32,318 nucleotides of DNA. Source: a virus (lineage: Duplodnaviria; Caudoviricetes). The stretch covers positions 1-32,318 of IMG/VR virus record IMGVR_UViG_3300037467_000591. One strand, written 5' to 3'. Under the pieces are notes generated by a model. The model saw nothing but the letters and a program-made list of their open reading frames with translations. It ran no database searches and was not told where the DNA came from. Both the position numbers and the translations under genes were made by a program. This document shows positions 817 through 16,283 of this stretch, in pieces. Position 1 is the first letter of the stretch. Each line of letters starts with the position of its first letter.

Positions 817-958
817 GATCGTTTTCAATGTAATCATAAATTGTCTTTTGCTCTCCGTATACGGTCTTTTTATAGCATTTAGGGCCGTATCCTATCTCTT
901 GGCTCCGTTTGTCTTTTAATGGACGGCCGCAACGTTTGCATTGGTCATTGATCTTCAT
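803..958 (-). CDS. DUF6011-like small zinc-finger protein (51 aa)
   Basis: Hand-translated MKINDQCKRCGRPLKDKRSQEIGYGPKCYKK...; CxxCGRPL-D--S---GxGPxC pattern; overlaps the end of the upstream gene; not in the ORF track. Confidence 0.7.
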   Translation of the reverse strand: MKINDQCKRCGRPLKDKRSQEIGYGPKCYKKTVYGEQKTIYDYIENDQKTG

Positions 959-1478
959 ACTTGTATAAGCCCAAACCAATGCGTTTTATTTGCGGATATT
1001 GTCTCATTGCGTCTTTAACGAACCCGGATGCATTATTTCCGTTCCAATCATTACAACCGGAAATATTCATAAATAAAACAATGTCTTTTAATGCTTTATA
1101 TCCATCGTGCGCCCCTCTTAAAAAACTAACTAATAATTGAGCCTCTTTTTTGCGCTGCTCGTATGTACGAGTGATACGCCCTTTAAATTCTCTTTTAATG
1201 CCTTTTTTAACCGTTTTATTAACAGTTTCATCCGGTAAAGGAATACCTTTCATTTCCGGCGGTGCTTTATATTCTTTTTTCTCCGGCTCCTGTTGTTGTG
1301 CTGCTCTTTCTGCTGCATCCATAGCTAATGCAAACGCATATTTGAAAGCTTGTTCAATTGTTTTTTTAGCAATGTTATGCTGAAATCTAATTTCTATGTC
1401 GTGAAATTCCTTATAATCTTCCCATGCTGACGCCGCTTGCTCATTATTTAATTTTAACATTTTTACCCCTCGTTTCAT
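945..1478 (-). CDS. hypothetical protein, possible C-terminal winged-helix DNA-binding domain
   Basis: 177-aa ORF in the operon (true start may be the second Met, after GAGGGG); ends in IKRIGLGLYKY, like a wing. Confidence 0.65.
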   Translation of the reverse strand: MKRGVKMLKLNNEQAASAWEDYKEFHDIEIRFQHNIAKKTIEQAFKYAFALAMDAAERAAQQQEPEKKEYKAPPEMKGIPLPDETVNKTVKKGIKREFKGRITRTYEQRKKEAQLLVSFLRGAHDGYKALKDIVLFMNISGCNDWNGNNASGFVKDAMRQYPQIKRIGLGLYKYEDQ

Positions 1479-4608: not shown

Positions 4609-4634
4609 AAAAAACCCGGTAATTAAACCGGGTT
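4609..4634 (-). terminator. intrinsic terminator
   Basis: AACCCGGT-aattaa-ACCGGGTT stem plus T-run after the 485-aa gene. Confidence 0.75.
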
Positions 4635-6090
4635 AAATTGCAGGCGTATTCTTTCCACCGTTTGGTATTGATCCTGTTAATGTTAATGAAATGTAATCGG
4701 TATTTATTACGCTTGCGGTTGTACCGTCTGACGGGTTATTAGTATATGCTAGGAAATGAACAAAACCATTAACATCAATAAAACCGCTCATATTAGTTTC
4801 ACTTACGGTTAATTTAGAAATCGTTCCATTCGAGTGAGAAATAGCGCCTACCCAACTACCCCACCACTTACTAAATGTTGAACCATTACCGCCAACCGAA
4901 CTACCAAACCCCCACCAATCAGCTTTTATAGTACTTATAATACTTTTCGCAATAACAATTTTTTCACTCAATAACGTTTTTCCTTGCCAAATAGAAATAC
5001 CTAAATTTCTCTCAAGGTTGGAAATTATGTCGAATGAGAATAGTTGTTGTATTATACCCCCATTTGTTCCAACACTAACATTGTACGCGTTACCGTCTAA
5101 TGAATTTATTTTCGCATATGACGTTGTTAATATTTCACTAGTAATACCCGCGGGCGCTTGTAATGAAGATGATCCTGTTTGTTTGATAATATTCGGGTTT
5201 TCAACCGTACTACCCGCAACCTTACCCACGAAATCAACCACAAACGAAAATGCGGACGGCTGCAGGATGGCCGGCGTGTTTAATGGGATGTATGGCTCGT
5301 ATGCGGTGGCCGTTGATCCTTTTTCTATTTGCGTTGTTATTGTAACGTCTGTTGCTTGTAAACGGAAATTGATATAAGCGCAATTTGCCGGCGTGGTAAA
5401 TGTTAGTCCACTATTTGAATAGTTGAAATAAGAAATAAAATTCTTATTAATATCGTAATAGTATATATTTTTATTCAAATTAGGCGTTGATTCAGTCAAA
5501 ATATACGTTGTGCTAGGCGTGACAGGAATATATTTATTCGCATTTCTTACATAAGTTGCATTTGCTAAAAGAGTGCCATCCCCTGTGTTATATGATCCGC
5601 TTTCTAATTTACCGTCAAATAAATTCTTTTTCGGTGTCCTAGCTGCTGCATTAGTTGTAGTTGCTGCCGTGTTTAACGGGATGTATGGCTCGAATTGGGT
5701 TGCTGCTGCGCCTTCCTCAACTTGAATATTTTCAAATGTAACGGTTTCAATAGCTAAACTATTTCTCAAATACATTCTCACTAAAGTGTTATTCCCTGTA
5801 TTAAATGAGAAATTAGAATTAGTATAAGAGGCTAATTGTACACTAGCATCATTATTAAAAACGCCCATTTGGCCATTACCAATAGTTTGAGATGTGGCCT
5901 TAAAAGAAATAGTATACGTCATATTAGCTTTTAAAGTAAGATACACATACCCATTTCTATTTAAAATATCGGGTAACCAATCCATTTTAAATTCAGAACG
6001 TACAGTTCTTGAAGCATTACCTTGAATTGGACTAGAAATAAAACCTTTATACAAATTTTTCTTTGGTGTAATAATCGCTGCTTGTACCAT
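4633..6090 (-). CDS. putative receptor-binding/fibre protein with two carbohydrate-binding-like beta domains and a C-terminal domain shared with the 1147-aa tail protein
   Basis: Repeated TPKKNL...Q(V/I)E(E/K)G..AT.(F/Y)EPY modules typical of siphophage CBM-like domains; C-terminal DFxGKV..STVENPN domain. Confidence 0.7.
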   Translation of the reverse strand: MVQAAIITPKKNLYKGFISSPIQGNASRTVRSEFKMDWLPDILNRNGYVYLTLKANMTYTISFKATSQTIGNGQMGVFNNDASVQLASYTNSNFSFNTGNNTLVRMYLRNSLAIETVTFENIQVEEGAAATQFEPYIPLNTAATTTNAAARTPKKNLFDGKLESGSYNTGDGTLLANATYVRNANKYIPVTPSTTYILTESTPNLNKNIYYYDINKNFISYFNYSNSGLTFTTPANCAYINFRLQATDVTITTQIEKGSTATAYEPYIPLNTPAILQPSAFSFVVDFVGKVAGSTVENPNIIKQTGSSSLQAPAGITSEILTTSYAKINSLDGNAYNVSVGTNGGIIQQLFSFDIISNLERNLGISIWQGKTLLSEKIVIAKSIISTIKADWWGFGSSVGGNGSTFSKWWGSWVGAISHSNGTISKLTVSETNMSGFIDVNGFVHFLAYTNNPSDGTTASVINTDYISLTLTGSIPNGGKNTPAI

Positions 6091-6324
6091 TTATTCACCT
6101 TCTTTTTTAGTGCCTAATAAATCGTCTACCGTGTCCCCGTTAATTTCATTTCCTGCGTTTTGTTGGTTGTATTTTGCGGTGATATATTGCGTGTCAATCT
6201 CCGGTTGGTTAATAGTAGGCGTAAAACCTTCGATAATAACTTGTAATTTCTCCGTAATAGCTGCTCTTTCCTCGTCTGTTAGATGCATTACTCCCGGGCC
6301 GTTTGGTGGGTTAACGAATGTCAT
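6091..6324 (-). CDS. hypothetical protein
   Basis: 77 aa, AAGGAGG RBS, in operon. Confidence 0.7.
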   Translation of the reverse strand: MTFVNPPNGPGVMHLTDEERAAITEKLQVIIEGFTPTINQPEIDTQYITAKYNQQNAGNEINGDTVDDLLGTKKEGE

Positions 6325-6337
6325 TTTAAATACCTCC

Positions 6338-6778
6338 TTATCGTAAGTATGTTTTTACTGTTATTGTATGTGATGCCGCATCACTATTATAAGCAAATAC
6401 ACGGCAAAACGGCGCTTTAATGTCTAGTATGCCGCCCTTTGTTTGGTTGGTGTTTGCTGCTATTACTTCATTCCAATCTAAAGTTACGCCATCGTGTGAC
6501 CAATCGACACTAACGGACGTGTTAACGGCTGCGTCACTTTTTAAAATAGCTGCTATTTTATCGAACCCATCACATGAGAAAAACCCTATCCCATAACTAC
6601 CATTTGACGTTGTAACTAAAACGGCATTATGAGTAATGATCGGCTTTGTTGTTCTGCCTTGAATTTCAATAGGCGCCTTAATTGCACTTCCAATAATTGT
6701 TACCGCATTTTGCGGCATTGCCTTACCTGTTGCTGCATCCTCATACATTGCGTGCGGATATTGCGTTAAATCTGCCAT
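6338..6778 (-). CDS. hypothetical protein, probably virion-associated (beta-rich)
   Basis: 146 aa, GGGGAGG RBS; in the fibre cluster. Confidence 0.7.
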   Translation of the reverse strand: MADLTQYPHAMYEDAATGKAMPQNAVTIIGSAIKAPIEIQGRTTKPIITHNAVLVTTSNGSYGIGFFSCDGFDKIAAILKSDAAVNTSVSVDWSHDGVTLDWNEVIAANTNQTKGGILDIKAPFCRVFAYNSDAASHTITVKTYLR

Positions 6779-6797
6779 TACTTTTGGCCTCCCCTTT

Positions 6798-6846
6798 TCT
6801 AAATTTTAGTACAATTTAATTATATAATAAAAAGTCAATAAAAAAA
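6798..6846 (-). promoter_or_regulatory. conserved 49-bp upstream element, copy 1 (candidate late promoter)
   Basis: 42/49 identical to 9314-9362; lies between a terminator and an RBS. Confidence 0.6.
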
Positions 6847-6847
6847 T

Positions 6848-6874
6848 AAAAACCCGATAATTTCTATCGGGTTA
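6848..6874 (-). terminator. intrinsic terminator
   Basis: AACCCGATA...TATCGGGTT stem with T-run. Confidence 0.7.
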
Positions 6875-7159
6875 AACAACTTGGAAAGATTTATTAAAAC
6901 TTGGATACTTTTTATTATTAGGCAAATTAACAACGGCCCAATAATCATATTTCCCTCTATTTGGTATATCTGTTTCTAATATTTCAAACTGACATATGCC
7001 GGCGGACGCGTTTGTAATTTGGGCCGTTTTATTAATCGTAATTGTTCCGTTTTGAATATAAATAGTAACGGTTGCATTGTCTAATACAACTATTCCCGCT
7101 GCATCTTTAATGGTTTCCTCGAATATTACGCCGTTACTACCCAATAAAACCTTTTCCAT
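6872..7159 (-). CDS. BppU-N-like baseplate/appendage adaptor
   Basis: I.D..G..V.L..ATV.I...A.I.NA..G...F.....D....G.Y pattern resembles the BppU N-terminal Ig-like domain. Confidence 0.55.
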   Translation of the reverse strand: MEKVLLGSNGVIFEETIKDAAGIVVLDNATVTIYIQNGTITINKTAQITNASAGICQFEILETDIPNRGKYDYWAVVNLPNNKKYPSFNKSFQVV

Positions 7160-7169
7160 GATCCACCCC

Positions 7170-8603
7170 CTACAAAAATAAATCTCCTTTTACTTGTCTA
7201 ATGATAATTGTTTCCCCGTTGCTTTTACGATTAACGATAATTTCCCCGTTAAACATTCTATTTATGATTAAATCACCTTTTATAAGCTGCTTGTAAATTG
7301 GTTTATTAGGCATTAATACATTAATTGCATCGGATAAAACAACAACGTCAAATAATTTAACGCTGATATTGGCCCCTCTTGCTGCCGTTTCCGTTATTCC
7401 TAACGTTTCCAACTTGCTTTTTACAACGCTTTTTCTAATAGTATCGGTAAAAGATACGGCATCATTTAAAATAACCGTTTTACCGTTAAAAACGCTCAAT
7501 GCGTCACTAGCTGCAATTGCATCGTTAATTTTGCGGTTTGCTGCCTTTTGTTCTCCGTCCGTGCCTGTTATTGCGTCGGCTTGGAATTTAGATAATGCCT
7601 TTTTAATGGCCCCGTCGCTTAATGTAATAGAATCGGATAATAAAACCAATTTACCGCCAATTGTGCTTATTGCGTCCGTTGGCGTTAATGTATCATTAAT
7701 CCGTTTTGCAGCCGCTTTATTTTCCCCGTCCGATCCTGTTATAGTATCGTTTTGTACTTTAGAGGATGTTTTGCGGATCGTTTCAGTAATAGCAATTGCA
7801 TCCGATAAAATAACCGCTTTGCCCGTTAACTTAGTAAAGCTATCACTTGTATTAAGTGTATCAATAATTGCGAATGTCCGTTTTTTTACAACGGTTTCCG
7901 TAATTGTTATTGCGTCGGCTGCGCTCTTTTTTGGTGCTTTTGTCAAAACCTCTGATAACGTTACGTTTTCCGGCAAACTCTTTTTTGGTGCTTTTACAAT
8001 CGTTTCCGATCCTGTTATAGTATCGCTCAACGTTTTTGTATAAGCATTTCCGCCGGTGTCTATTTGCATGTCGTCCACTTGGAAATTGTCATATATCGGA
8101 CTACCCGCCCCGGCTGCCATGCCAAAATATGTTGCCGTTTGGTTAAATGATGAGGTTACACTTGTAAGTTGTGTACTATTTTTATATACGGTAATTGTTG
8201 TGCCTTGACACTTAACCTTAATAGTATCGCCGGAAACGAGCGTAACCGGCGTTGTACCAATATTTGACCAACCACCACTATAAATATAAATGTCTAACCC
8301 TGTGCCGGTGTACTCTACAAAAAAGTATTGGCTATTGCTTGGGCCGGCCCTAAATACTAATTGTTGGCCCCCGGCCGGAAAAATAAAATCAGCTTGTACA
8401 ATAGCATCACTAACGCCGGCATTTGCAATCATACCCCCATCGGATGCCCCTGATATAACAATTTGATTATTATTTATATAAGGAGTACAACCGCCGCCAA
8501 CCTTTAATTGCACCCACGTTTGGCCCGTTTCAGTATTTCCCAAACCGGTTGGGGATGCTGTGGTATTTGCCCGGGTTGCGGTATCTTTTACAACAATAGT
8601 CAT
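7170..8603 (-). CDS. putative tail fibre/appendage protein with N-terminal lectin-like beta-sandwich and repeat shaft
   Basis: Beta-rich N-terminal ~180 aa followed by about 13 repeats of ~18-20 aa (K.l.D.i..(s/t)(D/E)). Confidence 0.65.
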   Translation of the reverse strand: MTIVVKDTATRANTTASPTGLGNTETGQTWVQLKVGGGCTPYINNNQIVISGASDGGMIANAGVSDAIVQADFIFPAGGQQLVFRAGPSNSQYFFVEYTGTGLDIYIYSGGWSNIGTTPVTLVSGDTIKVKCQGTTITVYKNSTQLTSVTSSFNQTATYFGMAAGAGSPIYDNFQVDDMQIDTGGNAYTKTLSDTITGSETIVKAPKKSLPENVTLSEVLTKAPKKSAADAITITETVVKKRTFAIIDTLNTSDSFTKLTGKAVILSDAIAITETIRKTSSKVQNDTITGSDGENKAAAKRINDTLTPTDAISTIGGKLVLLSDSITLSDGAIKKALSKFQADAITGTDGEQKAANRKINDAIAASDALSVFNGKTVILNDAVSFTDTIRKSVVKSKLETLGITETAARGANISVKLFDVVVLSDAINVLMPNKPIYKQLIKGDLIINRMFNGEIIVNRKSNGETIIIRQVKGDLFL

Positions 8604-8606
8604 TTT

Positions 8607-8849
8607 CTAATCACCTACAAACCATGTTAAGACGTTTGCATAATTTAATTGATTGTCATTACAAAACGTTTCTAAATCGTCAATTTTATTCAATTCCGGG
8701 ACGTCCTCATTTATCCCAATTAAAAATTTATCATTAATTATAAGTCCAACGAATGAACCCTCATAATTGGGCCTAAACGGGTTGCTTTTCGATCCGTCAC
8801 CTATTTTATCAACTAAATAATAAAACATTAGTTTAATGTAACGTCCCAT
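8607..8849 (-). CDS. hypothetical protein (possible fibre chaperone)
   Basis: Small ORF with GDGSKSNPFRP; true start probably the second Met. Confidence 0.6.
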   Translation of the reverse strand: MGRYIKLMFYYLVDKIGDGSKSNPFRPNYEGSFVGLIINDKFLIGINEDVPELNKIDDLETFCNDNQLNYANVLTWFVGD

Positions 8850-9295
8850 GTAATTTGTAAGCTATCGGATGCACTCGCAAGGTTAACGGCTCCCGTTAAT
8901 TGATGAGCAAATAATGTACCGGACGTTGCTGCATTGAATAACCCAACCTCTTGTATTGTTGGGTTGCCTGTTCCGCCTGTTAATGTTGCAACGTATCTTA
9001 TAACGTTTCCGCTTGGGTTTGAACGTGTAACCGCTTGTCGTGCATAACCGGAATACGTGCCCGTTGTTAATTCTGTGCCTAATGTTGTGTCGGATGCAGC
9101 AACGGCCGTACTAGACGTACCAAAACCAATATGCGTTACTAATGACGTGCCGGCACTTGCTGAATTTAATAAACTTGCTAATGAGTTTTTTCCAACCGTT
9201 GTAATAACGTTGTCTCTTTCCATTATTGAAATGACTTGGCCATCTCTAATGTGCTCAACTTTAATGCGTCCTGTAACTTTTAAACCTTCATTCAT
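8828..9295 (-). CDS. phage tail-fibre-associated structural protein
   Basis: NVITTVGKN...HIGFGTS.TA....DTTL..E...I.EVGLFNA..SGTLFA pattern typical of fibre-attachment domains. Confidence 0.7.
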   Translation of the reverse strand: MNEGLKVTGRIKVEHIRDGQVISIMERDNVITTVGKNSLASLLNSASAGTSLVTHIGFGTSSTAVAASDTTLGTELTTGTYSGYARQAVTRSNPSGNVIRYVATLTGGTGNPTIQEVGLFNAATSGTLFAHQLTGAVNLASASDSLQITWDVTLN

Positions 9296-9313
9296 TGTAA
9301 AACCCCCATTTTA

Positions 9314-9362
9314 TCTAAATTTTGTTACAATTCAATTATATATCAAAAAGTGCATAAAAAAA
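9314..9362 (-). promoter_or_regulatory. conserved 49-bp upstream element, copy 2
   Basis: 42/49 identical to 6798-6846. Confidence 0.6.
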
Positions 9363-9381
9363 GACCCATTAAAAATGGGTT
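9356..9381 (-). terminator. intrinsic terminator
   Basis: ACCCATT-aaa-AATGGGT stem with T-run on the minus strand. Confidence 0.65.
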
Positions 9382-9598
9382 TCGTTTGAACTAGACAGTT
9401 GTCGAGACTGTTTAAATACTAAGAATGTATTACAAAGTATTATCAAATACCCTGCAATGCTTGGTTAATTGTTTCCGCAACTAACCGTATGAAATGTAAA
9501 TATAAGTATTTTACTACATTTAAAGCGGATAAATAAAAGGTAATTCAGTTAATGAAATAAGGTTAAAATAAAACAAAATACTTAAACGAAAAATATAA

Positions 9599-9629
9599 AC
9601 GGGCCATACGTGCGCATCGTATTGCCCGT
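9599..9629 (-). terminator. GC-rich hairpin downstream of the ATPase gene
   Basis: ACGGGC.ATACG...CGTAT.GCCCGT followed by TTATATTTTT. Confidence 0.55.
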
Positions 9630-9641
9630 ACCGGTAAAACA

Positions 9642-9671
9642 ATTATACTCATTAATTGATTATTTTGTAAA
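9642..9671 (-). promoter_or_regulatory. sigmaA-like promoter with no obvious downstream ORF
   Basis: TTTACA-18-TATAAT; degenerate operator copy at 9658-9672. Confidence 0.45.
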
Positions 9672-9680
9672 CACTTAATT

Positions 9681-12287
9681 TTATATAATTTGTTGCAATT
9701 CTTTCCATGATCGGCCATACATGCGGGCATGGCGTTTTGTTAAGAATGAGTTATCATAAGGCGTATTAACCGGCGGCCTCATATGGCATAAAAATGCCGG
9801 CTGCAACTCTCCCCCGGCCCTAACACTAACTATTGCATGATGCATTGGCGTTTTATATGCGTCCTCTAAGGATATTGTTTCCTCAAATCTATGTTTAGAT
9901 TTATCAAATGTATTTGTATGATCGTTATAAAATAAAAACTGTTGAACGCCTCCACCTTGTAAATTTTCCTGCAAACTATGCGCTAATTTATTCCAATGAT
10001 GAAAAGCATAGATTGAGCCGAAACGCGCTTTTCTTCCCTCGGTACCAATACGGCCCATTAATTTTGTAAGTCCTTCACTTTCGTATTGCTCCGGCTCATT
10101 AAATATCATGAAACAACCGTTTTTTTGGTCCTCTTTGCTCATTAAAATACGTGTCATAAACGCCTTTAACGTGATCCAATGAACTAATATTTTAACGGCA
10201 AATTCTCCGAACCCTTTGCCATTTGGAACGCGTAAAATAATTACTTTTCCCTCTTTCATCCACTTTGCGAAATCTAACCCCTCAATTGGTTCTTGGGCGA
10301 AAATATCAAATAATTTATTGGTCCCGAAAAATCTATTAAGACGGTGTAAAATTGCATCTGCTTTATTACCTAAATACGGGCCGCCTTCCTCATCTTTCCC
10401 CGGCTTTTCATTTGGTCCCCATGCTAACAACTCGCGGGCCAAACGCAATTGTCCTTCCTCGATTAATTCTTGTATGCGCTGCGCTCTATAATTTTCGTCC
10501 TCAATAATGCGTTTAATATTGTATAAGCTGCCGTTGGCTGCCTTTGCTGCATCTGTTAAATACTTTTCGGATCGGCTCAACCCCTCAATTTGTAAAAAGT
10601 CAATCATCTCCATTGCAAAACGATCCGCCCCATTTGGCCCTAATGCTTTAACAACCTCTGTTAAATCTAACGCCGGAGTGAAATCGTCGTCAAATAAATT
10701 AAGATCAATAATATTTTCCGGCGGTAAAGCGTCTCTTATTCCGTCGGCCATTCCTCGCTTTCCTTCCTCAACAATTGCGTCCGGGATAATAAAGCTAATA
10801 CCGTGCTTTAAATTACCCTCTACAACCCAATTTATAACGGCCGTATCTTTCCCGGCCCCTTGCCCTCCTATAAATACATAACCCTTGTAAAACTCATCCG
10901 GGTTACTTACCGGCATATAAATTTGTATTACTTGGTCTTTTAATTCTGCGTTGCCTAAATAAATACCGTTACTATCTCTTAATGCTGCCGGTATTTCAAC
11001 CTCAACGCGTTTTTTCGCGTTCAACGCATCTGCAAACTTACGTTGTAACTCTTTGTTAGGCATCATTAGGGCCAATTTGCTTAATTCATCCGTGCTCACT
11101 AAATTTACATTTGGATCATATTTTGTTTTCATACCTAAATTTAATGTGTTTAATTCCGTTAAAATTTCTTTTGTACGTGAACTATTAATTTTAATTTTAA
11201 TGCCGTTTAATTCGTTTGAATCGCTCAAATCTTGCGTTGATAATGCTAATGTCTCGCTTATCGTTTCGCGTGTTAGGCGGTCCGCTGAATGTGCAGCAAC
11301 GCGAATATGAGTTTTAAAAACGGGTTGGTTTCCTTTTTCGTGACTAAAACGGCTGCTGCCTATTTCATCCTCTAACGAATATGCTTTTTTAATCATTTTT
11401 TCCTTTTCAAATTTCTTTTCACTCTTAAAAAACGAATTTGCTAACGCTTGGAAAGTATCTGTTAATAAATCGTTAATCTCATTAATAACGCCGGCAATAC
11501 CTATTTTTGCGCCTGTTGCAATGCGTTTACCGTCTACATTGGCCCTTTGTGGAATTTTCCCCTTGCTCAATTTTTCATACGCCCATTGCGCATTTTTAAC
11601 CCATTTATTGCGGTTTTCGGCCTCTGCGCATATGCTCATACGTGCAACGTCTCCGTCATATTGCAATTCGTCAACCGTACTTAAAATACTACCTATTGGC
11701 GTTTTAACATCATTGGAATTTGTATTCAAACTAAAAATATCATGCTTTAAGTATTTCATTTCCTGTACGATTGTATTTTCATACGGTATGTGTAAATCTT
11801 CGATTGTCGCCTCACTCATTGTAACGCTCATTTTATTCTCAATTTTTCTTTTTAATTTCTGCGCTTGGTATTCTGTTGTAGATACAAAAAATTCAATTCT
11901 TTTTTGTCCGTTCACTTGTCTAAATACAACATCAAACCAAAAATAATCCTTTTCTCTATATCTAAATTTAAAAATTCCTTTTCGTTCCGTGCGGCTTGAA
12001 TTACTTTCATACATTTCATACATTTTATAAATGGATCGCCACAACCTTTTATTATTGTTCGTAACGTCTGCATGAGGCGTTAATTTATAAACAATCATTT
12101 TATTTTTTTCTACCTGGAAAAACTCTTTGAATGAATAAGATTGTTTCTTTTTAAAAAGTGATCGTTTAACCGGTAAAGCGGGGACGTTCCCCGCATACGG
12201 TACCGGATAAAGATATTGTTCTTTAATCATTGGCGCATTTGGGTTATTCATATCTTTAATCGTGAAATTATCGCCGTGGATCGTCAT
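9681..12287 (-). CDS. VirB4/VirD4/HerA-FtsK superfamily ATPase (868 aa)
   Basis: Walker A GGQGAGKD, Walker-B-like CFMIFNEPEQ, TEGRKARF (arginine-finger region) and AFHH in the usual order. Confidence 0.8.
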   Translation of the reverse strand: MTIHGDNFTIKDMNNPNAPMIKEQYLYPVPYAGNVPALPVKRSLFKKKQSYSFKEFFQVEKNKMIVYKLTPHADVTNNNKRLWRSIYKMYEMYESNSSRTERKGIFKFRYREKDYFWFDVVFRQVNGQKRIEFFVSTTEYQAQKLKRKIENKMSVTMSEATIEDLHIPYENTIVQEMKYLKHDIFSLNTNSNDVKTPIGSILSTVDELQYDGDVARMSICAEAENRNKWVKNAQWAYEKLSKGKIPQRANVDGKRIATGAKIGIAGVINEINDLLTDTFQALANSFFKSEKKFEKEKMIKKAYSLEDEIGSSRFSHEKGNQPVFKTHIRVAAHSADRLTRETISETLALSTQDLSDSNELNGIKIKINSSRTKEILTELNTLNLGMKTKYDPNVNLVSTDELSKLALMMPNKELQRKFADALNAKKRVEVEIPAALRDSNGIYLGNAELKDQVIQIYMPVSNPDEFYKGYVFIGGQGAGKDTAVINWVVEGNLKHGISFIIPDAIVEEGKRGMADGIRDALPPENIIDLNLFDDDFTPALDLTEVVKALGPNGADRFAMEMIDFLQIEGLSRSEKYLTDAAKAANGSLYNIKRIIEDENYRAQRIQELIEEGQLRLARELLAWGPNEKPGKDEEGGPYLGNKADAILHRLNRFFGTNKLFDIFAQEPIEGLDFAKWMKEGKVIILRVPNGKGFGEFAVKILVHWITLKAFMTRILMSKEDQKNGCFMIFNEPEQYESEGLTKLMGRIGTEGRKARFGSIYAFHHWNKLAHSLQENLQGGGVQQFLFYNDHTNTFDKSKHRFEETISLEDAYKTPMHHAIVSVRAGGELQPAFLCHMRPPVNTPYDNSFLTKRHARMYGRSWKELQQII

Positions 12288-13001
12288 TTATACCCCTCCT
12301 AATATACATAAAGCAATTATTAATAGGGCCGTGTATATTGCAATTGGTTTTATCATGCCGCTTTTTCCAAACATGGCCCCTAATATTATAAATACGCCGG
12401 TTGCCATTGCTCCATAACCCATAATATTTGGAAGATGCAGCACGAACCAACCCCAAAACGCCTCCCCTAAATCTTTAAACATTTTAATGACCGGACCTAT
12501 TATAATTTCGTTTTCCTTATTTACCACTTTATCCGAAAAATGATTTATTTTATCCATTATCCAACCGTGACTATGAATGTTTTCAGCAATTTTTAATACT
12601 GTTTGGTGGTCCACGTTCCCGGCCATTTCACTTAAAGACTTTGCATATTCTGTTGGATCAATAAACGTGCCTTTTGCGTTTTGTATCCCGAAATGTAAAT
12701 GTGCGCCGTGAGAATGGCCCGTATTTCCTGTTGCTCCTAAAACGTCGCCCGGATGTATGCGCTGCCCTTTAAATACGTCAATTTGGCTTAAATGTCCGTA
12801 TATATGGTGCTCGCCGTTTGGTGTACGAATAACAACGCCTTTACCAATATTTTTGGTGCCATAATCTACAACCCTTTCAACTACTCCGTCCGTAACGCTG
12901 CGCAATGTCGTCCCGGATGGTGTGGCAATATCTATTCCGTTATGAACGCCTTCTCTAACCGGGGATAATTCCCCAAACCCGCCGCTCAATCGAAATTTCA
13001 T
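12288..13001 (-). CDS. M23 (LytM-type) peptidoglycan endopeptidase with two C-terminal transmembrane helices
   Basis: HNGID (HxxxD), YGHL and HLH (HxH) zinc motifs intact; hydrophobic C-terminus; no N-terminal signal peptide. Confidence 0.88.
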   Translation of the reverse strand: MKFRLSGGFGELSPVREGVHNGIDIATPSGTTLRSVTDGVVERVVDYGTKNIGKGVVIRTPNGEHHIYGHLSQIDVFKGQRIHPGDVLGATGNTGHSHGAHLHFGIQNAKGTFIDPTEYAKSLSEMAGNVDHQTVLKIAENIHSHGWIMDKINHFSDKVVNKENEIIIGPVIKMFKDLGEAFWGWFVLHLPNIMGYGAMATGVFIILGAMFGKSGMIKPIAIYTALLIIALCILGGV

Positions 13002-13114
13002 TATTTATACCCCCATAATTTAGAGATTTTTTTAATCGCTTTATCTGTCGTTTTATTTGCAGCTTTAACCGCCTTAATAACTTTTTTAATGTTGCTTTTC
13101 TTCTTTTTAGCCAT
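13001..13114 (-). CDS. Lys-rich 37-aa peptide (MAKKKKSNIKKVIKAVKAANKTTDKAIKKISKLWGYK)
   Basis: Hand-translated; fills the gap exactly, TAATG-coupled to the M23 gene; AAAGGG upstream. Confidence 0.6.
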   Translation of the reverse strand: MAKKKKSNIKKVIKAVKAANKTTDKAIKKISKLWGYK

Positions 13115-13117
13115 AAC

Positions 13118-13477
13118 TTATATACCCTTTAAAAAATCTCTAATATCAATTGCATGACGTGCAAGTATATAACCGCATGAGACGCCTATAATAATTTCTA
13201 TCGCCTTTGTACGGTGATTTAAACCCCATGACGCCCCGGCAAAAATTAGAACTAATACGACGCCCGCATCAAACGCCCTCATGATCGCCTCGTAAACATT
13301 GCCAAACGTGCCATCCATCGTTTCGCCTAATACGATTTTCGGACCAATTAAAGTCAATGCCGGTGTAATTGCTGCAACTGTTTTTGTAACCGCCGTTATG
13401 CTGCTATCACCTTTTTTAATACGTTTATAATCGCCGCTCATAAATTCCTTAATACTCATTGTTTGAACCTTTGCCAT
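13118..13477 (-). CDS. TrbC/VirB2-pilin-like membrane protein
   Basis: Hydrophobic leader, then two hydrophobic segments joined by a short basic loop (IFAGASWGLNHRTKAIEIIIGVSCGY); GGGGG RBS. Confidence 0.6.
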   Translation of the reverse strand: MAKVQTMSIKEFMSGDYKRIKKGDSSITAVTKTVAAITPALTLIGPKIVLGETMDGTFGNVYEAIMRAFDAGVVLVLIFAGASWGLNHRTKAIEIIIGVSCGYILARHAIDIRDFLKGI

Positions 13478-13491
13478 TATTAAAACCCCCT

Positions 13492-13521
13492 GTATAAAAA
13501 TTTTGATGCCGGGCCATAATA
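13492..13521 (+). promoter_or_regulatory. sigmaF/sigmaG (forespore) promoter
   Basis: GTATA-15-GGCCATAATA matches the B. subtilis sigmaF consensus GYATA-N15-GGnnAnAHTR and the sigmaG consensus GHATR-N18-CATWHTA. Confidence 0.75.
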
Positions 13522-13553
13522 AAAGTACGTTGATGTTAGAAAGGATGATATTA

Positions 13554-13625
13554 ATGTTTATAGCTGCTTTAATTGTTGGTTATGCCGTGGGCCTAGCCGT
13601 TAATGATATGTTGAAAAAAGACTAA
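13554..13625 (+). CDS. 23-aa hydrophobic peptide (MFIAALIVGYAVGLAVNDMLKKD)
   Basis: Strong RBS AGAAAGGATGA; single-TM pattern with charged tail; downstream of the sigmaF/G promoter; stop overlaps the stop of the convergent RHH gene. Confidence 0.7.
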   Translation: MFIAALIVGYAVGLAVNDMLKKD

Positions 13626-13936
13626 TTAAACATTTTAGGGCCGGGCGCAATGTCCGGTTTTTTGTTTTCTAATTCTTTTTTCATTTTTGCTATTTTCTCC
13701 GCTGCCGTTAATGGCTTATTTTCTTTTACAACTTCTTTTATTGGCTCATCTTCTGAAACGTCTTTAAATGCCTCATTTTGGGCTTTTAACGTTTCCCGCT
13801 CCTTTATGTCTGCTAGTATTAATTTTTTCACATATCCGCTAAAATTTCGGCCTTTTACACGCTTTAAAATTTGTTGATCCTCTGCATTTTTAGAATTAAA
13901 GGCAACGGGTTTAGAAAAACGGTTTTTCTCTTTCAT
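13622..13936 (-). CDS. ribbon-helix-helix-like DNA-binding protein
   Basis: SKPVAFN (beta strand) ... NFSGYVKKLILADI (helix) pattern; charged C-terminal tail; AAAGGGGG RBS. Confidence 0.7.
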   Translation of the reverse strand: MKEKNRFSKPVAFNSKNAEDQQILKRVKGRNFSGYVKKLILADIKERETLKAQNEAFKDVSEDEPIKEVVKENKPLTAAEKIAKMKKELENKKPDIAPGPKMFN

Positions 13937-13966
13937 TAGGCGTTTGCCCCCTTTCTTTGTTTTTAT

Positions 13967-13995
13967 ACGATATGAGCGCTAATATCATTTGATGC
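13967..13995 (-). promoter_or_regulatory. sigmaE-like (mother-cell) promoter of the RHH-to-ATPase operon
   Basis: GCATCAA-14-CATATCGT versus the consensus KMATAWW-N14-CATACAHT; lies between a terminator and the RBS. Confidence 0.6.
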
Positions 13996-14004
13996 ACGTA
14001 CCCA

Positions 14005-14038
14005 ATAAAAAAACCGCTCGGAATTTTCCCGGCGGTTT
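14005..14038. terminator. intrinsic terminator, likely bidirectional
   Basis: AAACCGC.CGG...CCGG.CGGTTT stem with T-run on the minus strand. Confidence 0.65.
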
Positions 14039-14112
14039 GTGTTAGCTAATTAGCTGCAACGCGTCTTGCTATATAGCTATGCGGCGGATATGTAAAAGAT
14101 GCATGATCCACA

Positions 14113-14140
14113 AAAATAAAACCCGGTAAATTTATACCGG
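14113..14140 (-). terminator. intrinsic terminator
   Basis: CCCGGTA...TACCGGG stem with T-run. Confidence 0.65.
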
Positions 14141-14329
14141 GCGGCTTAACTCTTTTTCTGTATACATTTTCTTGCAGCTTTTACACTTATAACGAACCGG
14201 TAAAAACGGAACGAATGGTAAAAATAAGATCATTGGCCAAATGATAAAACTAACAATTAAGAATGTGAAAAATTGCATCCCTTTACTAAATTTAGTCATT
14301 TCGTTTTGACAGTTAGGACATATTTTCAA
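14132..14329 (-). CDS. LITAF-like zinc-ribbon membrane protein
   Basis: CPNC, then a hydrophobic hairpin, then CKSC; AAGGAGG RBS. Confidence 0.7.
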   Translation of the reverse strand: MKICPNCQNEMTKFSKGMQFFTFLIVSFIIWPMILFLPFVPFLPVRYKCKSCKKMYTEKELSRPV

Positions 14330-14819
14330 TTTTATTTTCCTCCTTAATTTTAAACGTCCAACCTTTTGTTTGTTTTCTTTTTCCGTTTAAACAACGATTA
14401 ACATTTGATGGCTCTAAATTGTGTAAAAGAGCAAACTTTGTATACCCTAAACCTTCGTATTTTATCCCATCCGGCGAAATAGCTATAAATCTTTTGTTAT
14501 TCCGTCTGTTGTAATTTTGAATGGAATAAGTTGCCCAACGGCAATTACCTAAAAAATAACCTTTTTCATTGTCTATTCTGTCTAAAGTAGTGTTATTTTC
14601 TCCATAAATTTTTACATGGTCTAAATAACTTTCGTACATATCATTTTTAAAATTAATAAAATCTTCCCAATGATCCAAAAAAGTTATACCCCTACCGCCG
14701 TAATTATGAAAGTCTCTATGGGTTTTTATTTCACAACGACTTTTTGCATTTTGCCAAATTCTATAAAATTTAGTGTTCCTATGACCGTGAAATTTTCCTC
14801 TTACCATATTTACCTCCAT
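14313..14819 (-). CDS. free-standing HNH homing endonuclease with C-terminal NUMOD1-like domain
   Basis: YRIW...KSRC, YGGRGI, TLDRIDNEKGY...NCRWAT...Q.YNRR, and C-terminal V.RCLNGKRKQTKGWTF. Confidence 0.85.
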   Translation of the reverse strand: MEVNMVRGKFHGHRNTKFYRIWQNAKSRCEIKTHRDFHNYGGRGITFLDHWEDFINFKNDMYESYLDHVKIYGENNTTLDRIDNEKGYFLGNCRWATYSIQNYNRRNNKRFIAISPDGIKYEGLGYTKFALLHNLEPSNVNRCLNGKRKQTKGWTFKIKEENKIENMS

Positions 14820-14898
14820 ATCTTATGCAATGTACCACAAAATAAATAACCCAATTAGACAAATTAAAGCGCCTATTAAATTTAGACGCTTTAATAAT

Positions 14899-15168
14899 TT
14901 AACGCGCAATATTTAACCTCCTAATTTGTTCGTATTTTTCCACCTCGTAAGCCGGGTAATACGATCCGCCGCCCTCTACAATACCCTCTATTGGTTGGCA
15001 AAAATCTGTATGCCTAACACTCCAATTTTGGACGGTTTGACGGTCAACGCCCCAACGAATAGCTAATGATTGTTTAGTGTATAACGGAAAAACTTTTTTT
15101 ACTGTTTCTACTGAATGGCTCATAACATCCTCAATGCAGCTTTCTAAAAACTCATCGTAATTTTTCAT
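14899..15168 (-). CDS. MerR/excisionase-like winged HTH DNA-binding protein
   Basis: LYTKQSLAIRWGVDRQTVQNW..RH.DF..P...Y...EVEKYE; GGGGGAG RBS. Confidence 0.75.
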   Translation of the reverse strand: MKNYDEFLESCIEDVMSHSVETVKKVFPLYTKQSLAIRWGVDRQTVQNWSVRHTDFCQPIEGIVEGGGSYYPAYEVEKYEQIRRLNIAR

Positions 15169-15299
15169 GCTGAATTACTCCCCCTTCCGTTGTTAAAACG
15201 GCAACCATAACATATAATGAATTTAAGCCGCTCAACCGCCTAAATTGTTCGGCGCATTATTTACCCCTCTGCCCGTTGGATCGCCGCCAACGGGTTTTT

Positions 15300-15496
15300 T
15301 TATAACAAAATTTCTAATAATGCAGCTAATAAAAACCCAATTCCAATAAGAATACCCATTACATCCATAAATACTTTTTAAAAAAACGTGCTGCCGGCGT
15401 TTCTTTTGTTCTAAAATATAAAGCTCCTGCAATTGCTCCAAATGCTAACGATCCAAAAAATAAAACCAAATAAATAAAAGTAAACGGCATATTCAT
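15300..15496 (-). pseudogene. small two-TM membrane protein interrupted by a frame change at a T7A5 homopolymer
   Basis: Frame 0 (15359-15496) MNMPFTFIYLVLFFGSLAFGAIAGALYF...RFFKK; the -1 frame continues VFMDVMGILIGIGFLLAALLEILL to the stop at 15300. Confidence 0.45.
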
Positions 15497-15500
15497 TAAA

Positions 15501-15674
15501 TTACCCCTTTTCTATTTTTGATTTTCGGCCACGCCTTTTAATTTCCACGGTTTTAATTAATTCCCAACGGTTAATTTTGATTTTTTCGTTAATCCCTTTT
15601 AACGCGCCCTCACCTTCAATAATTTCTTTAACGATGTTTAAGCCATTAAAATAGTTAACACTATACTTTTTCAT
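15501..15674 (-). CDS. hypothetical protein (57 aa, MKKYSVNYFNGLNIVKEIIEG...)
   Basis: Hand-translated; GGAGG RBS; not in the ORF track. Confidence 0.65.
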   Translation of the reverse strand: MKKYSVNYFNGLNIVKEIIEGEGALKGINEKIKINRWELIKTVEIKRRGRKSKIEKG

Positions 15675-15746
15675 GGTGTACCGCCTCCGTGTTGTAAAGT
15701 GCTTTCACCTTTTAAGGCCCGGGCATCTGCTGCCTCGGGCCATTTT

Positions 15747-15920
15747 TTAAATTCCTTCTATTACTTCTACTTTTTCGATTCTCATATATCTATTAAAGTC
15801 TTTTTTCCAAATTGTTTCCATTATCTTCTCGATCGCTTGCTCTTTACCTTCTGCTACAACATTCATTTTAGTAACTTTCCCTAACTCATCTGTTACCGTA
15901 CCGTAAAAGTTTTTACCCAA
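15747..15920 (-). CDS. hypothetical protein
   Basis: ORF-track gene; spacing to AAAGGGG favours the second TTG (15920). Confidence 0.6.
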   Translation of the reverse strand: MGKNFYGTVTDELGKVTKMNVVAEGKEQAIEKIMETIWKKDFNRYMRIEKVEVIEGI

Positions 15921-15959
15921 ATTCGCCAACCCCTTTTTGTTTTTGTTTACCTTGTAATC

Positions 15960-15988
15960 ATCTTACAATAAAGTGTATACATTGTAAA
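15960..15988 (-). promoter_or_regulatory. sigmaA-like promoter with two operator copies
   Basis: TTTACA-17-TAAGAT; palindromes at 15945-15959 and 15975-15989. Confidence 0.65.
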
Positions 15989-16037
15989 CAGTTTTTATGC
16001 AAAAAAGAGGCAAATTATTTTTTGCCCCTTGCTGCTG

Positions 16038-16283
16038 CTATTTTTTCACTTGTTCCTCATGCATTTTTAAAACGGCTTTTTGAGTTAGGCCCTTACGCGT
16101 TACATAGTTGTTTTTATACCATGCAATTAGTGCCGTTACGATTGTAAAAACCGTTGAAACGATTAGGTCAATTTGTTGATCGTTGAAATGTAACGGCGAC
16201 TTATCAAAACTAACTAATACTTGGTTAATTAACGCAACCGCTAAAATGATTGTTCTAATTAAACTAGCTTTATCCATTTTCAT
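16038..16283 (-). CDS. SPP1-family holin
   Basis: IRTIILAVALINQ.L...SPL...AWYKNNYVT..G motif. Confidence 0.9.
   Translation of the reverse strand: MKMDKASLIRTIILAVALINQVLVSFDKSPLHFNDQQIDLIVSTVFTIVTALIAWYKNNYVTRKGLTQKAVLKMHEEQVKK

Follow-up and report, generated by a model that had tools for sequence, protein, structure and literature searches.

Gene organization of the locus

The window (the whole stretch of DNA analysed, 32,318 nt) comes from a tailed phage, of which it is a 32-kb fragment, and every recognised gene in it lies on the minus strand. A cassette, its features listed in Table 1, follows the lysis genes and a small number of early genes. The tblastn search showed that this cassette corresponds to genes 31, 31.1, 31.2 and 32 of phage SPP1. 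It was also found in GBK2, 0105phi7-2 and plasmid records of the B. cereus group, and more distantly in SPO1, CP-51, SP10 and D6E.

Table 1. Features of the cassette and of the plus-strand peptide gene (positions in the window)
Feature	Position	Strand	Remark
Predicted sigmaF/sigmaG (forespore) promoter, GTATA-N15-GGCCATAATA	13492..13521	+	GTATA at 13492-13496, 15-nt spacer, GGCCATAATA at 13512-13521
RBS of the peptide gene, AGAAAGGATGA	13538..13548	+	
Hydrophobic GxxxG peptide gene, 23 aa	13554..13625	+	ATG at 13554, 23 codons, TAA ending at 13625; member of a conserved 17-24 aa family
Intrinsic terminator-like hairpin closing the peptide transcript	13637..13661	+	Lies within the RHH-like gene, at its 3' end
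RHH-like protein, low-complexity linker and conserved C-terminal helix	13622..13936	-	SPP1 gp31 homolog, 46% identity
Predicted sigmaE (mother-cell) promoter, GCATCAA-N14-CATATCGT	13967..13995	-	Spacer contains an operator-like palindrome (13969-13986)
Terminator-like hairpin shielding the operon against transcription from upstream	14007..14038	-	Minus-strand U-tract
Upstream element: second sigmaE-like promoter and two GCTA-nn-TAGC palindromes	14045..14102	-	Palindromes at 14045-14054 and 14068-14077
VirB2/TrbC-like pilin candidate	13118..13477	-	SPP1 gp31.1 homolog, 56% identity
Basic ORF, 37 aa	13001..13114	-	Not constant in the cassette
Two-helix membrane domain with a fused M23 peptidase domain	12288..13001	-	SPP1 gp31.2-like
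ATPase, 868 aa, VirB4/TrwB/HerA fold (predicted)	9681..12287	-	SPP1 gp32 homolog, 67% identity

Between the pilin-like and RHH-like genes, a short peptide gene is encoded on the plus strand. The -35 of its promoter begins 2 nt from the RBS of the pilin-like gene (13475-13490, minus strand), and its stop shares 4 nt with the stop of the RHH-like gene. The promoter, the RBS, the 23-codon ORF, the abutting -35 and the overlap of the convergent stops, all described by an earlier sequence-only reading, were confirmed. That reading also called the peptide the only credible plus-strand gene, and this holds: two plus-strand ORFs of at least 15 aa in the window have a strong RBS, and the second lies entirely inside a minus-strand gene. 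The peptide is strongly hydrophobic (hydropathy 2.4 over 16 residues), with a net charge near zero and almost no extramembrane part. The gene is not an assembly artefact, because two of four compared contigs, which come from two other soil runs, span it.

The peptide stop is followed by a hairpin and U-tract on the plus strand (-12.9 kcal/mol, z -2.7), and the predicted transcript is about 140 nt. Read-through to a hairpin at 14005-14038, giving an antisense RNA of about 500 nt to the RHH-like gene, had been proposed from the sequence. Such an RNA is not needed, because the plus-strand terminator-like hairpin comes directly after the stop; moreover, the U-tract of the hairpin at 14007-14038 belongs to the minus strand. 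A hairpin with a U-tail also lies within 60 nt after the peptide stop in 39 of the 52 peptide-bearing loci described below, and the long antisense RNA was rejected.

Proteins of the cassette

In Foldseek, the ATPase model (pLDDT 83) matched TrwK/VirB4 over its full length (E 9.5e-13), followed by TrwB and HerA; its superposition on TrwB had an rmsd of 6.5-6.9 over about 435 columns. The Atlas neighbours of this protein carry TrwB_AAD_bind and DUF8128 domains, and a PDB sequence search using the ATPase profile returned no match. Judged from the model, the product is a P-loop ATPase of the VirB4/TrwB/HerA fold. The pilin assignment is a weak call and the protein is a candidate: the Pfam pilin (TrbC) matches are weak (30 of 86 homologs, best E 2.8e-5), the window protein itself had none, and the fold matches of its model are generic hairpins, in which the Aeropyrum Ced pilus stands near the top (Z 7.6 over 69 residues) tied with unrelated hairpins. 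The RHH label is taken from the annotation of Sam46; the window protein had no Pfam match. The M23 part is optional among the relatives and absent in many copies.

No relaxase, coupling protein or VirB6/B8 scaffold was found in the cassette or was recognisable in the 32-kb window, which is a fragment record; the SPP1 cassette likewise encodes no relaxase, so that the substrate might be double-stranded DNA or protein. The versions in SPO1, CP-51 and 0305phi8-36 add a Replic_Relax relaxase and a partition protein (actin-like in SPO1), which points to DNA handling. Among the ATPase-bearing records, 105 of 106 phages and 49 of 49 plasmids belong, by organism name, to endospore-forming genera; the exception is one Microcystis phage.

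Several other elements surround the cassette. A 380-nt gap after the ATPase gene (9300-9680) contains a sigmaA promoter with 11 of 12 consensus positions (9671-9642, minus strand), inverted repeats and a terminator (9380-9364); SPP1 has a similarly structured gap after gene 32. A second tail-fibre- or decoration-like structural block (4633-9295, minus) stands apart from the main morphogenesis module, with the cassette between them. Upstream of the cassette an HNH/NUMOD endonuclease is inserted (14313-14819, minus), and similar endonuclease insertions occur inside the cassette in three relatives (L028, L036 and L057). The product of 945-1478 (minus) weakly matches the Rok winged-helix domain at its C-terminus (E 0.018).

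Conservation and loss of the peptide

Related loci were collected (103); after those without a pilin match (17) or with too little upstream DNA (4) were dropped and near-identical ones were merged, 59 distinct loci were retained. A homologous hydrophobic ORF of 17-24 aa, led by an RBS and placed on the other strand immediately upstream of the pilin gene, was found in 52 of these 59 loci, which include two FtsK-type cassettes (L018 and L019). One locus scored without the peptide (L102, from MMB025) has two divergent antisense peptides further upstream, and one of the loci dropped before the count (L091) has the peptide. There are 45 distinct peptide sequences among the 52 loci. Across all 50 distinct DNA sequences the two glycines of the GxxxG motif never vary, and 44 of them also encode an Asn. 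The pN/pS ratio is 0.28 in 89 pairs with identity above 85% and 0.20 in 114 pairs with 70-85% identity, with third-position bias, the pairs not being independent; it is 0.54 in 549 more distant pairs, where synonymous sites saturate. The RBS and the hydrophobicity are retained as the DNA diverges to 50-70% identity.

The stops of the peptide gene and the facing gene overlap in 42 of 46 loci, and the predicted transcript overlaps the 3' end of the RHH-like gene. These features could also be read as antisense transcription that alone silences the operon in the forespore, or as an ORF that is a by-product of overlapping signals. The purifying selection, the invariant glycines and the RBS and hydrophobicity kept despite the DNA divergence make such a non-coding reading very improbable; the peptide gene is very likely real.

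In SPP1 a 17-codon copy, MHFFISLLIGYIVGVLV, lies where a gap separates gene 31 from gene 31.1, and the peptide was also found in Ray17 and 000TH010. It is unannotated in the records of SPP1, GBK2 and 0105phi7-2. As judged from these predicted ORFs, many Bacillus-type phages, SPP1 included, share an unannotated gene for a hydrophobic peptide of 17-24 residues. D6E, MMB025, Staley and one further locus (L124) repeat the layout, each with an antisense peptide behind a forespore-type promoter; the ATPases of D6E, MMB025 and L124 are only 24-30% identical, a figure that excludes Staley. The peptides of these four fall below the score range of the profile, and they are linked by position, promoter and composition. 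In MMB025 (about 1830-2000 of its locus, minus strand) two hydrophobic peptides are translationally coupled behind one shared sigmaF-like promoter. SP10 and LysYB1 likewise have antisense hydrophobic ORFs, upstream of the operon and with less clear promoters. Three loci (L017, L018 and L019) have a related pilin-like gene; in place of the VirB4-like ATPase they carry one of FtsK type along with a replication-relaxation-like gene, and no antisense peptide was seen in the FtsK-type cassettes L017 and L018.

The peptide is absent while the machine is kept in Sam46, PBC1, Wes44 and S4-5, and separately in L050. In the ATPase tree, Sam46, PBC1 and Wes44 form a long branch with two internal deletions, whereas L050 is placed amid peptide-bearing loci. 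The machine has been retained without the peptide by at least two lineages. A search of the whole genomes of Sam46 and PBC1 and of one provirus (G004) for a peptide elsewhere found nothing convincing.

The peptide profile gave one strong match in each of four host genomes (E 1e-7 to 7e-6; others 0.03 or worse). In each case this match was the cassette locus from which the query came, and no second chromosomal copy was found in the four genomes. A taxon-range search of 401 genomes of the phylum gave two matches. The peptide matched no Pfam family, and against PHROGs a single weak match was obtained (E 0.006 over 13 residues). Comparison of 39 family members with Pfam gave no TraS, Eex or TrbK match and only weak glycine-zipper matches (best E 0.009). 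The peptide was also considered as a mimic or fragment of the pilin, and this was rejected (HHalign probability 0.9% and 0.3% against the pilin and the membrane protein of the cassette).

The peptide might be an independent effector that targets a host forespore membrane protein or the membrane potential. A trapped phage would then be kept silent, germination would be tuned, or superinfection would be excluded at outgrowth, and the linkage to the cassette would come merely from a common role in spore life. The peptide's own promoter and terminator and its lack of an extramembrane domain are consistent with this, as is its position, which varies among distant modules (SP10 and LysYB1 have it upstream of the operon). 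However, the peptide was never found apart from the cassette in the searched genomes and stays with it across ATPase identities of 24-30%; an independent effector is considered unlikely.

Predicted promoters of the peptide gene and the operon

The pattern for sigmaF and sigmaG promoters was presumed to be a GYATA-type -35, a 14-15 nt spacer and a GG-led -10. The window holds a single match to the sigmaF-type pattern, against a mean of 0.06 in shuffles, of which 6 in 100 give one match, and the sigmaG-type pattern alone is at chance level there (47 of 100 shuffles). The lone site is therefore just suggestive, and the real evidence is its conservation. Unseeded Gibbs sampling of 30 non-redundant leaders (the set after removal of B. 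cereus-group redundancy) returned the motif GGncAtACTA, with an information content of 10.7 compared with 6.2-6.4 for shuffled leaders; a GTATA-type -35 is located 14-15 nt upstream of this motif. With patterns tuned after the data had been seen, the forespore-type promoter was present 24-41 nt from the start codon in 25 of the 30 leaders (shuffles mean 0.7, maximum 5) and in 47 of 52 before merging. The strict sigmaF pattern fits 13 of 30 leaders and the strict sigmaG pattern five. Other sigma factors were tried and rejected, as the sigmaA, sigmaB, sigmaH and sigmaK patterns match 5 (loose pattern), 0, 0 and 0 of the 30, respectively. A spacing of 15 nt is usual for sigmaF and sigmaG promoters, with 14 nt in PsigG (PMC5942855, in excerpt); a G before the -10 is a mark of sigmaF, and ATA is a mark of the sigmaE -35 (PMC3789822, in excerpt). 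The forespore-type promoter of the sequence-only reading thus stands, and we infer that host sigmaF or sigmaG reads it. That the gene is both real and expressed in the forespore is highly probable.

Going beyond the sequence-only reading, a promoter of another type is predicted for the facing operon. The sigmaE pattern, presumed here to be an ATA/CAT-type -35, a 13-15 nt spacer and a CATAnnnT -10, was found ahead of the RHH-like gene and behind a terminator in 41 of 52 loci. It is present in 21 of 30 non-redundant loci (shuffles mean 0.8, maximum 4), and in its relaxed form it matches the window 35 times. The -10 overlaps an operator-like half-site, and unseeded sampling of the operon leader returned that half-site. 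Host sigmaE would read this promoter, a call that is weaker than that of the forespore promoter.

Further upstream, the second sigmaE-like promoter misses the pattern by one base in this window. Together with the GCTA-n-TAGC palindromes before the terminator it was found in 13 of 52 loci by the strict pattern and in six more by the -10 alone. This upstream element (14007-14102, minus strand, with the terminator) also occurs in L005, L020, L023, L024, L072 and others, and is retained even by phages without the peptide; it is a candidate for an RNA of about 70 nt or a cis site for the RHH-like protein. An Rfam search over 9200-16100 gave one match, far below threshold. Spo0A boxes and parS sites in the window were at or below chance.

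Proposed function and alternatives

After asymmetric division, sigmaE is active in the mother cell and sigmaF and sigmaG in the forespore; the mother cell lyses later in sporulation. The promoters of the cassette predict expression only in sporulation and in opposite compartments. In the proposed model, the conjugation-like machine would be expressed under sigmaE in the mother cell from the opposite-strand operon. The RHH-like protein may bind GCTA-n-TAGC-type palindromes and repress its own operon, and its tail may tether phage DNA to the ATPase. Crossing of the septal wall would fall to the pilin-like and membrane proteins, together with M23 in the copies that have it. A phage genome left behind in the mother cell, which is doomed, would be pumped by the machine into the spore. 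If the forespore already holds the phage genome, it would make the peptide from the sigmaF/G promoter; in the forespore membrane, the peptide might block docking or pore opening via helix-helix contacts and thereby spare the spore.

The peptide could thus be a forespore 'already occupied' exclusion signal against a mother-cell machine that moves phage DNA in. This is a tentative reading, for which we infer the sigma assignment, the transfer and the role of the peptide alike. The ORF, the RBS, the terminator and both promoter motifs are conserved, and the gene order is that of a VirB2-like protein, a two-helix membrane protein and an ATPase. In a wider form, also held with less than even confidence, phages of spore-formers (the lytic SPP1 included) might run an intra-sporangium conjugation, with a three-protein injector under sigmaE and a micropeptide entry-exclusion factor under sigmaF/G. 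A control plasmid was lost at 58% in one sporulation round, and the forespore often fails to receive extrachromosomal DNA (PMC4615649, in excerpt); with losses of this size, a rescue device would have a selective rationale.

The peptide would be made only once the genome is in the forespore; it is therefore not needed for first entry, and the natural reading is a stop or exclusion. Because the peptide was lost and the machine kept in some lineages, a dispensable brake fits better than a subunit or a strict antidote. As the peptide has almost no extramembrane part, it could meet the machine only if the machine reaches the forespore membrane.

The same machine might instead be a spore-killer, which harms the forespore unless a phage-carrying forespore makes the peptide as antidote. 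The peptide-less Sam46, PBC1, Wes44, S4-5 and L050 keep the machine and would then harm their own spores, although the ATPase of the first group is shortened and long-branched. The relaxase and partition genes of the SPO1-type versions point to DNA movement, and no toxin domain was recognisable in the domain search; this reading is unlikely. A positive forespore-side partner can also be envisaged: both compartments would be infected, and the peptide would label the forespore side or open it to traffic between them, with proteins or signals going in or DNA going out to the mother cell in a Ced-like manner. The GxxxG motif suits oligomerisation, and the Aeropyrum Ced pilus is among the top (tied) fold matches of the pilin model. 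Nevertheless, the peptide is dispensable in at least two lineages, and because it needs the genome in the forespore first, it cannot aid entry into an uninfected forespore; a partner role is quite unlikely. A still less probable alternative has the mother-cell copy, doomed by lysis, escape to neighbouring cells while the infected forespore is protected from the machine by the peptide. The promoter logic would be identical, and for a related operon Pathria et al. suggested translocation from cell to cell within biofilms (PMC3357382, in excerpt). However, such a machine, built of three proteins, would need to pass through two mature walls, and many copies are without M23.

Among the three roles raised by the sequence-only reading (antidote, exclusion factor and channel partner), exclusion appears to fit best from the sequence comparisons. 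An obligate channel partner and a strict antidote are both weakened, as complete cassettes without the peptide exist. A conserved small membrane-type peptide with a forespore-type promoter, tied to a pilin/ATPase cassette, has stood, whereas the antisense RNA and the type I toxin-antitoxin pair have not.

Novelty and significance

That phage genomes can be trapped in spores has been known for decades. A search of the open-licence PMC and bioRxiv literature found no description of the peptide or of a compartment-split control of the cassette. The cassette is already in print, without an established function. The spore-entrapment mechanisms cited in an excerpted 2026 paper are Spo0A boxes and borrowed segregation elements (PMC12991052). 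If the proposal is true, it would add a dedicated and widespread mechanism of phage entrapment in spores, an 81st gene for the model phage SPP1 and a route for DNA delivery into spores. It would also explain why SPP1 genes that are non-essential on plates look useless in plaque assays. The orphan cassette of SPP1 gains a testable context, and the membership of SPP1 makes the proposal directly testable.

Comparison with known systems

The type IV secretion system core, VirB2-VirB3-VirB4, and the archaeal Ced/Ted DNA import systems are like the cassette in gene order and ATPase fold, and the Ced systems import DNA with a similar minimal set. The cassette is without a VirB6/B8 scaffold, a separate coupling protein and a relaxase.

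SPP1 genes 31, 31.1, 31.2 and 32 form the same cassette in the same order, with the identities given in Table 1. Godinho et al. (2018) proposed a trans-membrane translocon for genes 31-32, found 31.2 and 32 to be non-essential, and counted the 31-31.1 gap among five non-coding segments inside transcription units (PMC6316719, in excerpt). The cassette is treated there as early and sigmaA-driven, with the heavy chain alone annotated; the word 'sporulation', the antisense peptide and the sigmaE/sigmaF-type promoters do not appear in the available main text (PMC6316719).

Pathria et al. (2012) described a 'DNA translocation operon' in 0305phi8-36 and in SPO1 (gp27.3-27.9), non-essential on plates, with the proposal of transfer in biofilms; neither 'spore' nor 'sigma' occurs in the available text (PMC3357382). 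This operon shares a homologous ATPase (SPO1 gp27.4, 25% identity) and a pilin-like gene, with upstream sigmaE-like sites in both phages; it differs in carrying a relaxase and a ParM-like protein, and no clear peptide homolog was found in it. The 0305phi8-36 locus has forespore-type promoter matches at 7754 (plus, before orf208, a predicted regulator) and 1027 (minus, just past the relaxase gene). In the SPO1 (776-1187) and CP-51 (956-1365) loci, a divergent small membrane-type gene (gp29.12 and gp98, respectively) lies beside a sigmaE-like site. SPO1 and CP-51 share GACCC repeats there, a possible transfer origin, and gp29.12/gp98 may be an analog of the peptide.

ToxIN(Bt), a killer of plasmid-free forespores, also addresses the loss of extrachromosomal DNA at sporulation, whereas it is a constitutive RNA/RNase pair of one compartment with no secretion-like machine (PMC4615649, in excerpt). 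The type I toxins TxpA, BsrG and BsrE of B. subtilis prophages (treated in the accessible part of PMC10730256) share with the window a short hydrophobic peptide and a convergent 3' overlap. In the window, by contrast, the partner is a protein-coding operon, the leader is 19-35 nt, the net charge is near zero and the promoter is developmental. A type I toxin-like peptide had been the alternative in the sequence-only reading, and it found no support: the opposite strand is the operon mRNA with no dedicated antitoxin RNA, and Rfam gave nothing except the one sub-threshold match. A conserved RBS-hiding hairpin was rejected, as a 5' fold below -6 kcal/mol was found in 6 of 44 leaders, the window's among them.

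The conjugative entry-exclusion proteins TraS, Eex and TrbK are small membrane proteins of the element-holding recipient, encoded with the transfer genes and unneeded for transfer. The peptide is likewise encoded with transfer-like genes and dispensable for the machine. Unlike TraS, Eex and TrbK, with which no sequence likeness was found, it is much shorter and has no lipoprotein signal or soluble domain. In contrast to entry exclusion between cells, donor and recipient would here be the two compartments of one sporangium, separated by sigma factors.
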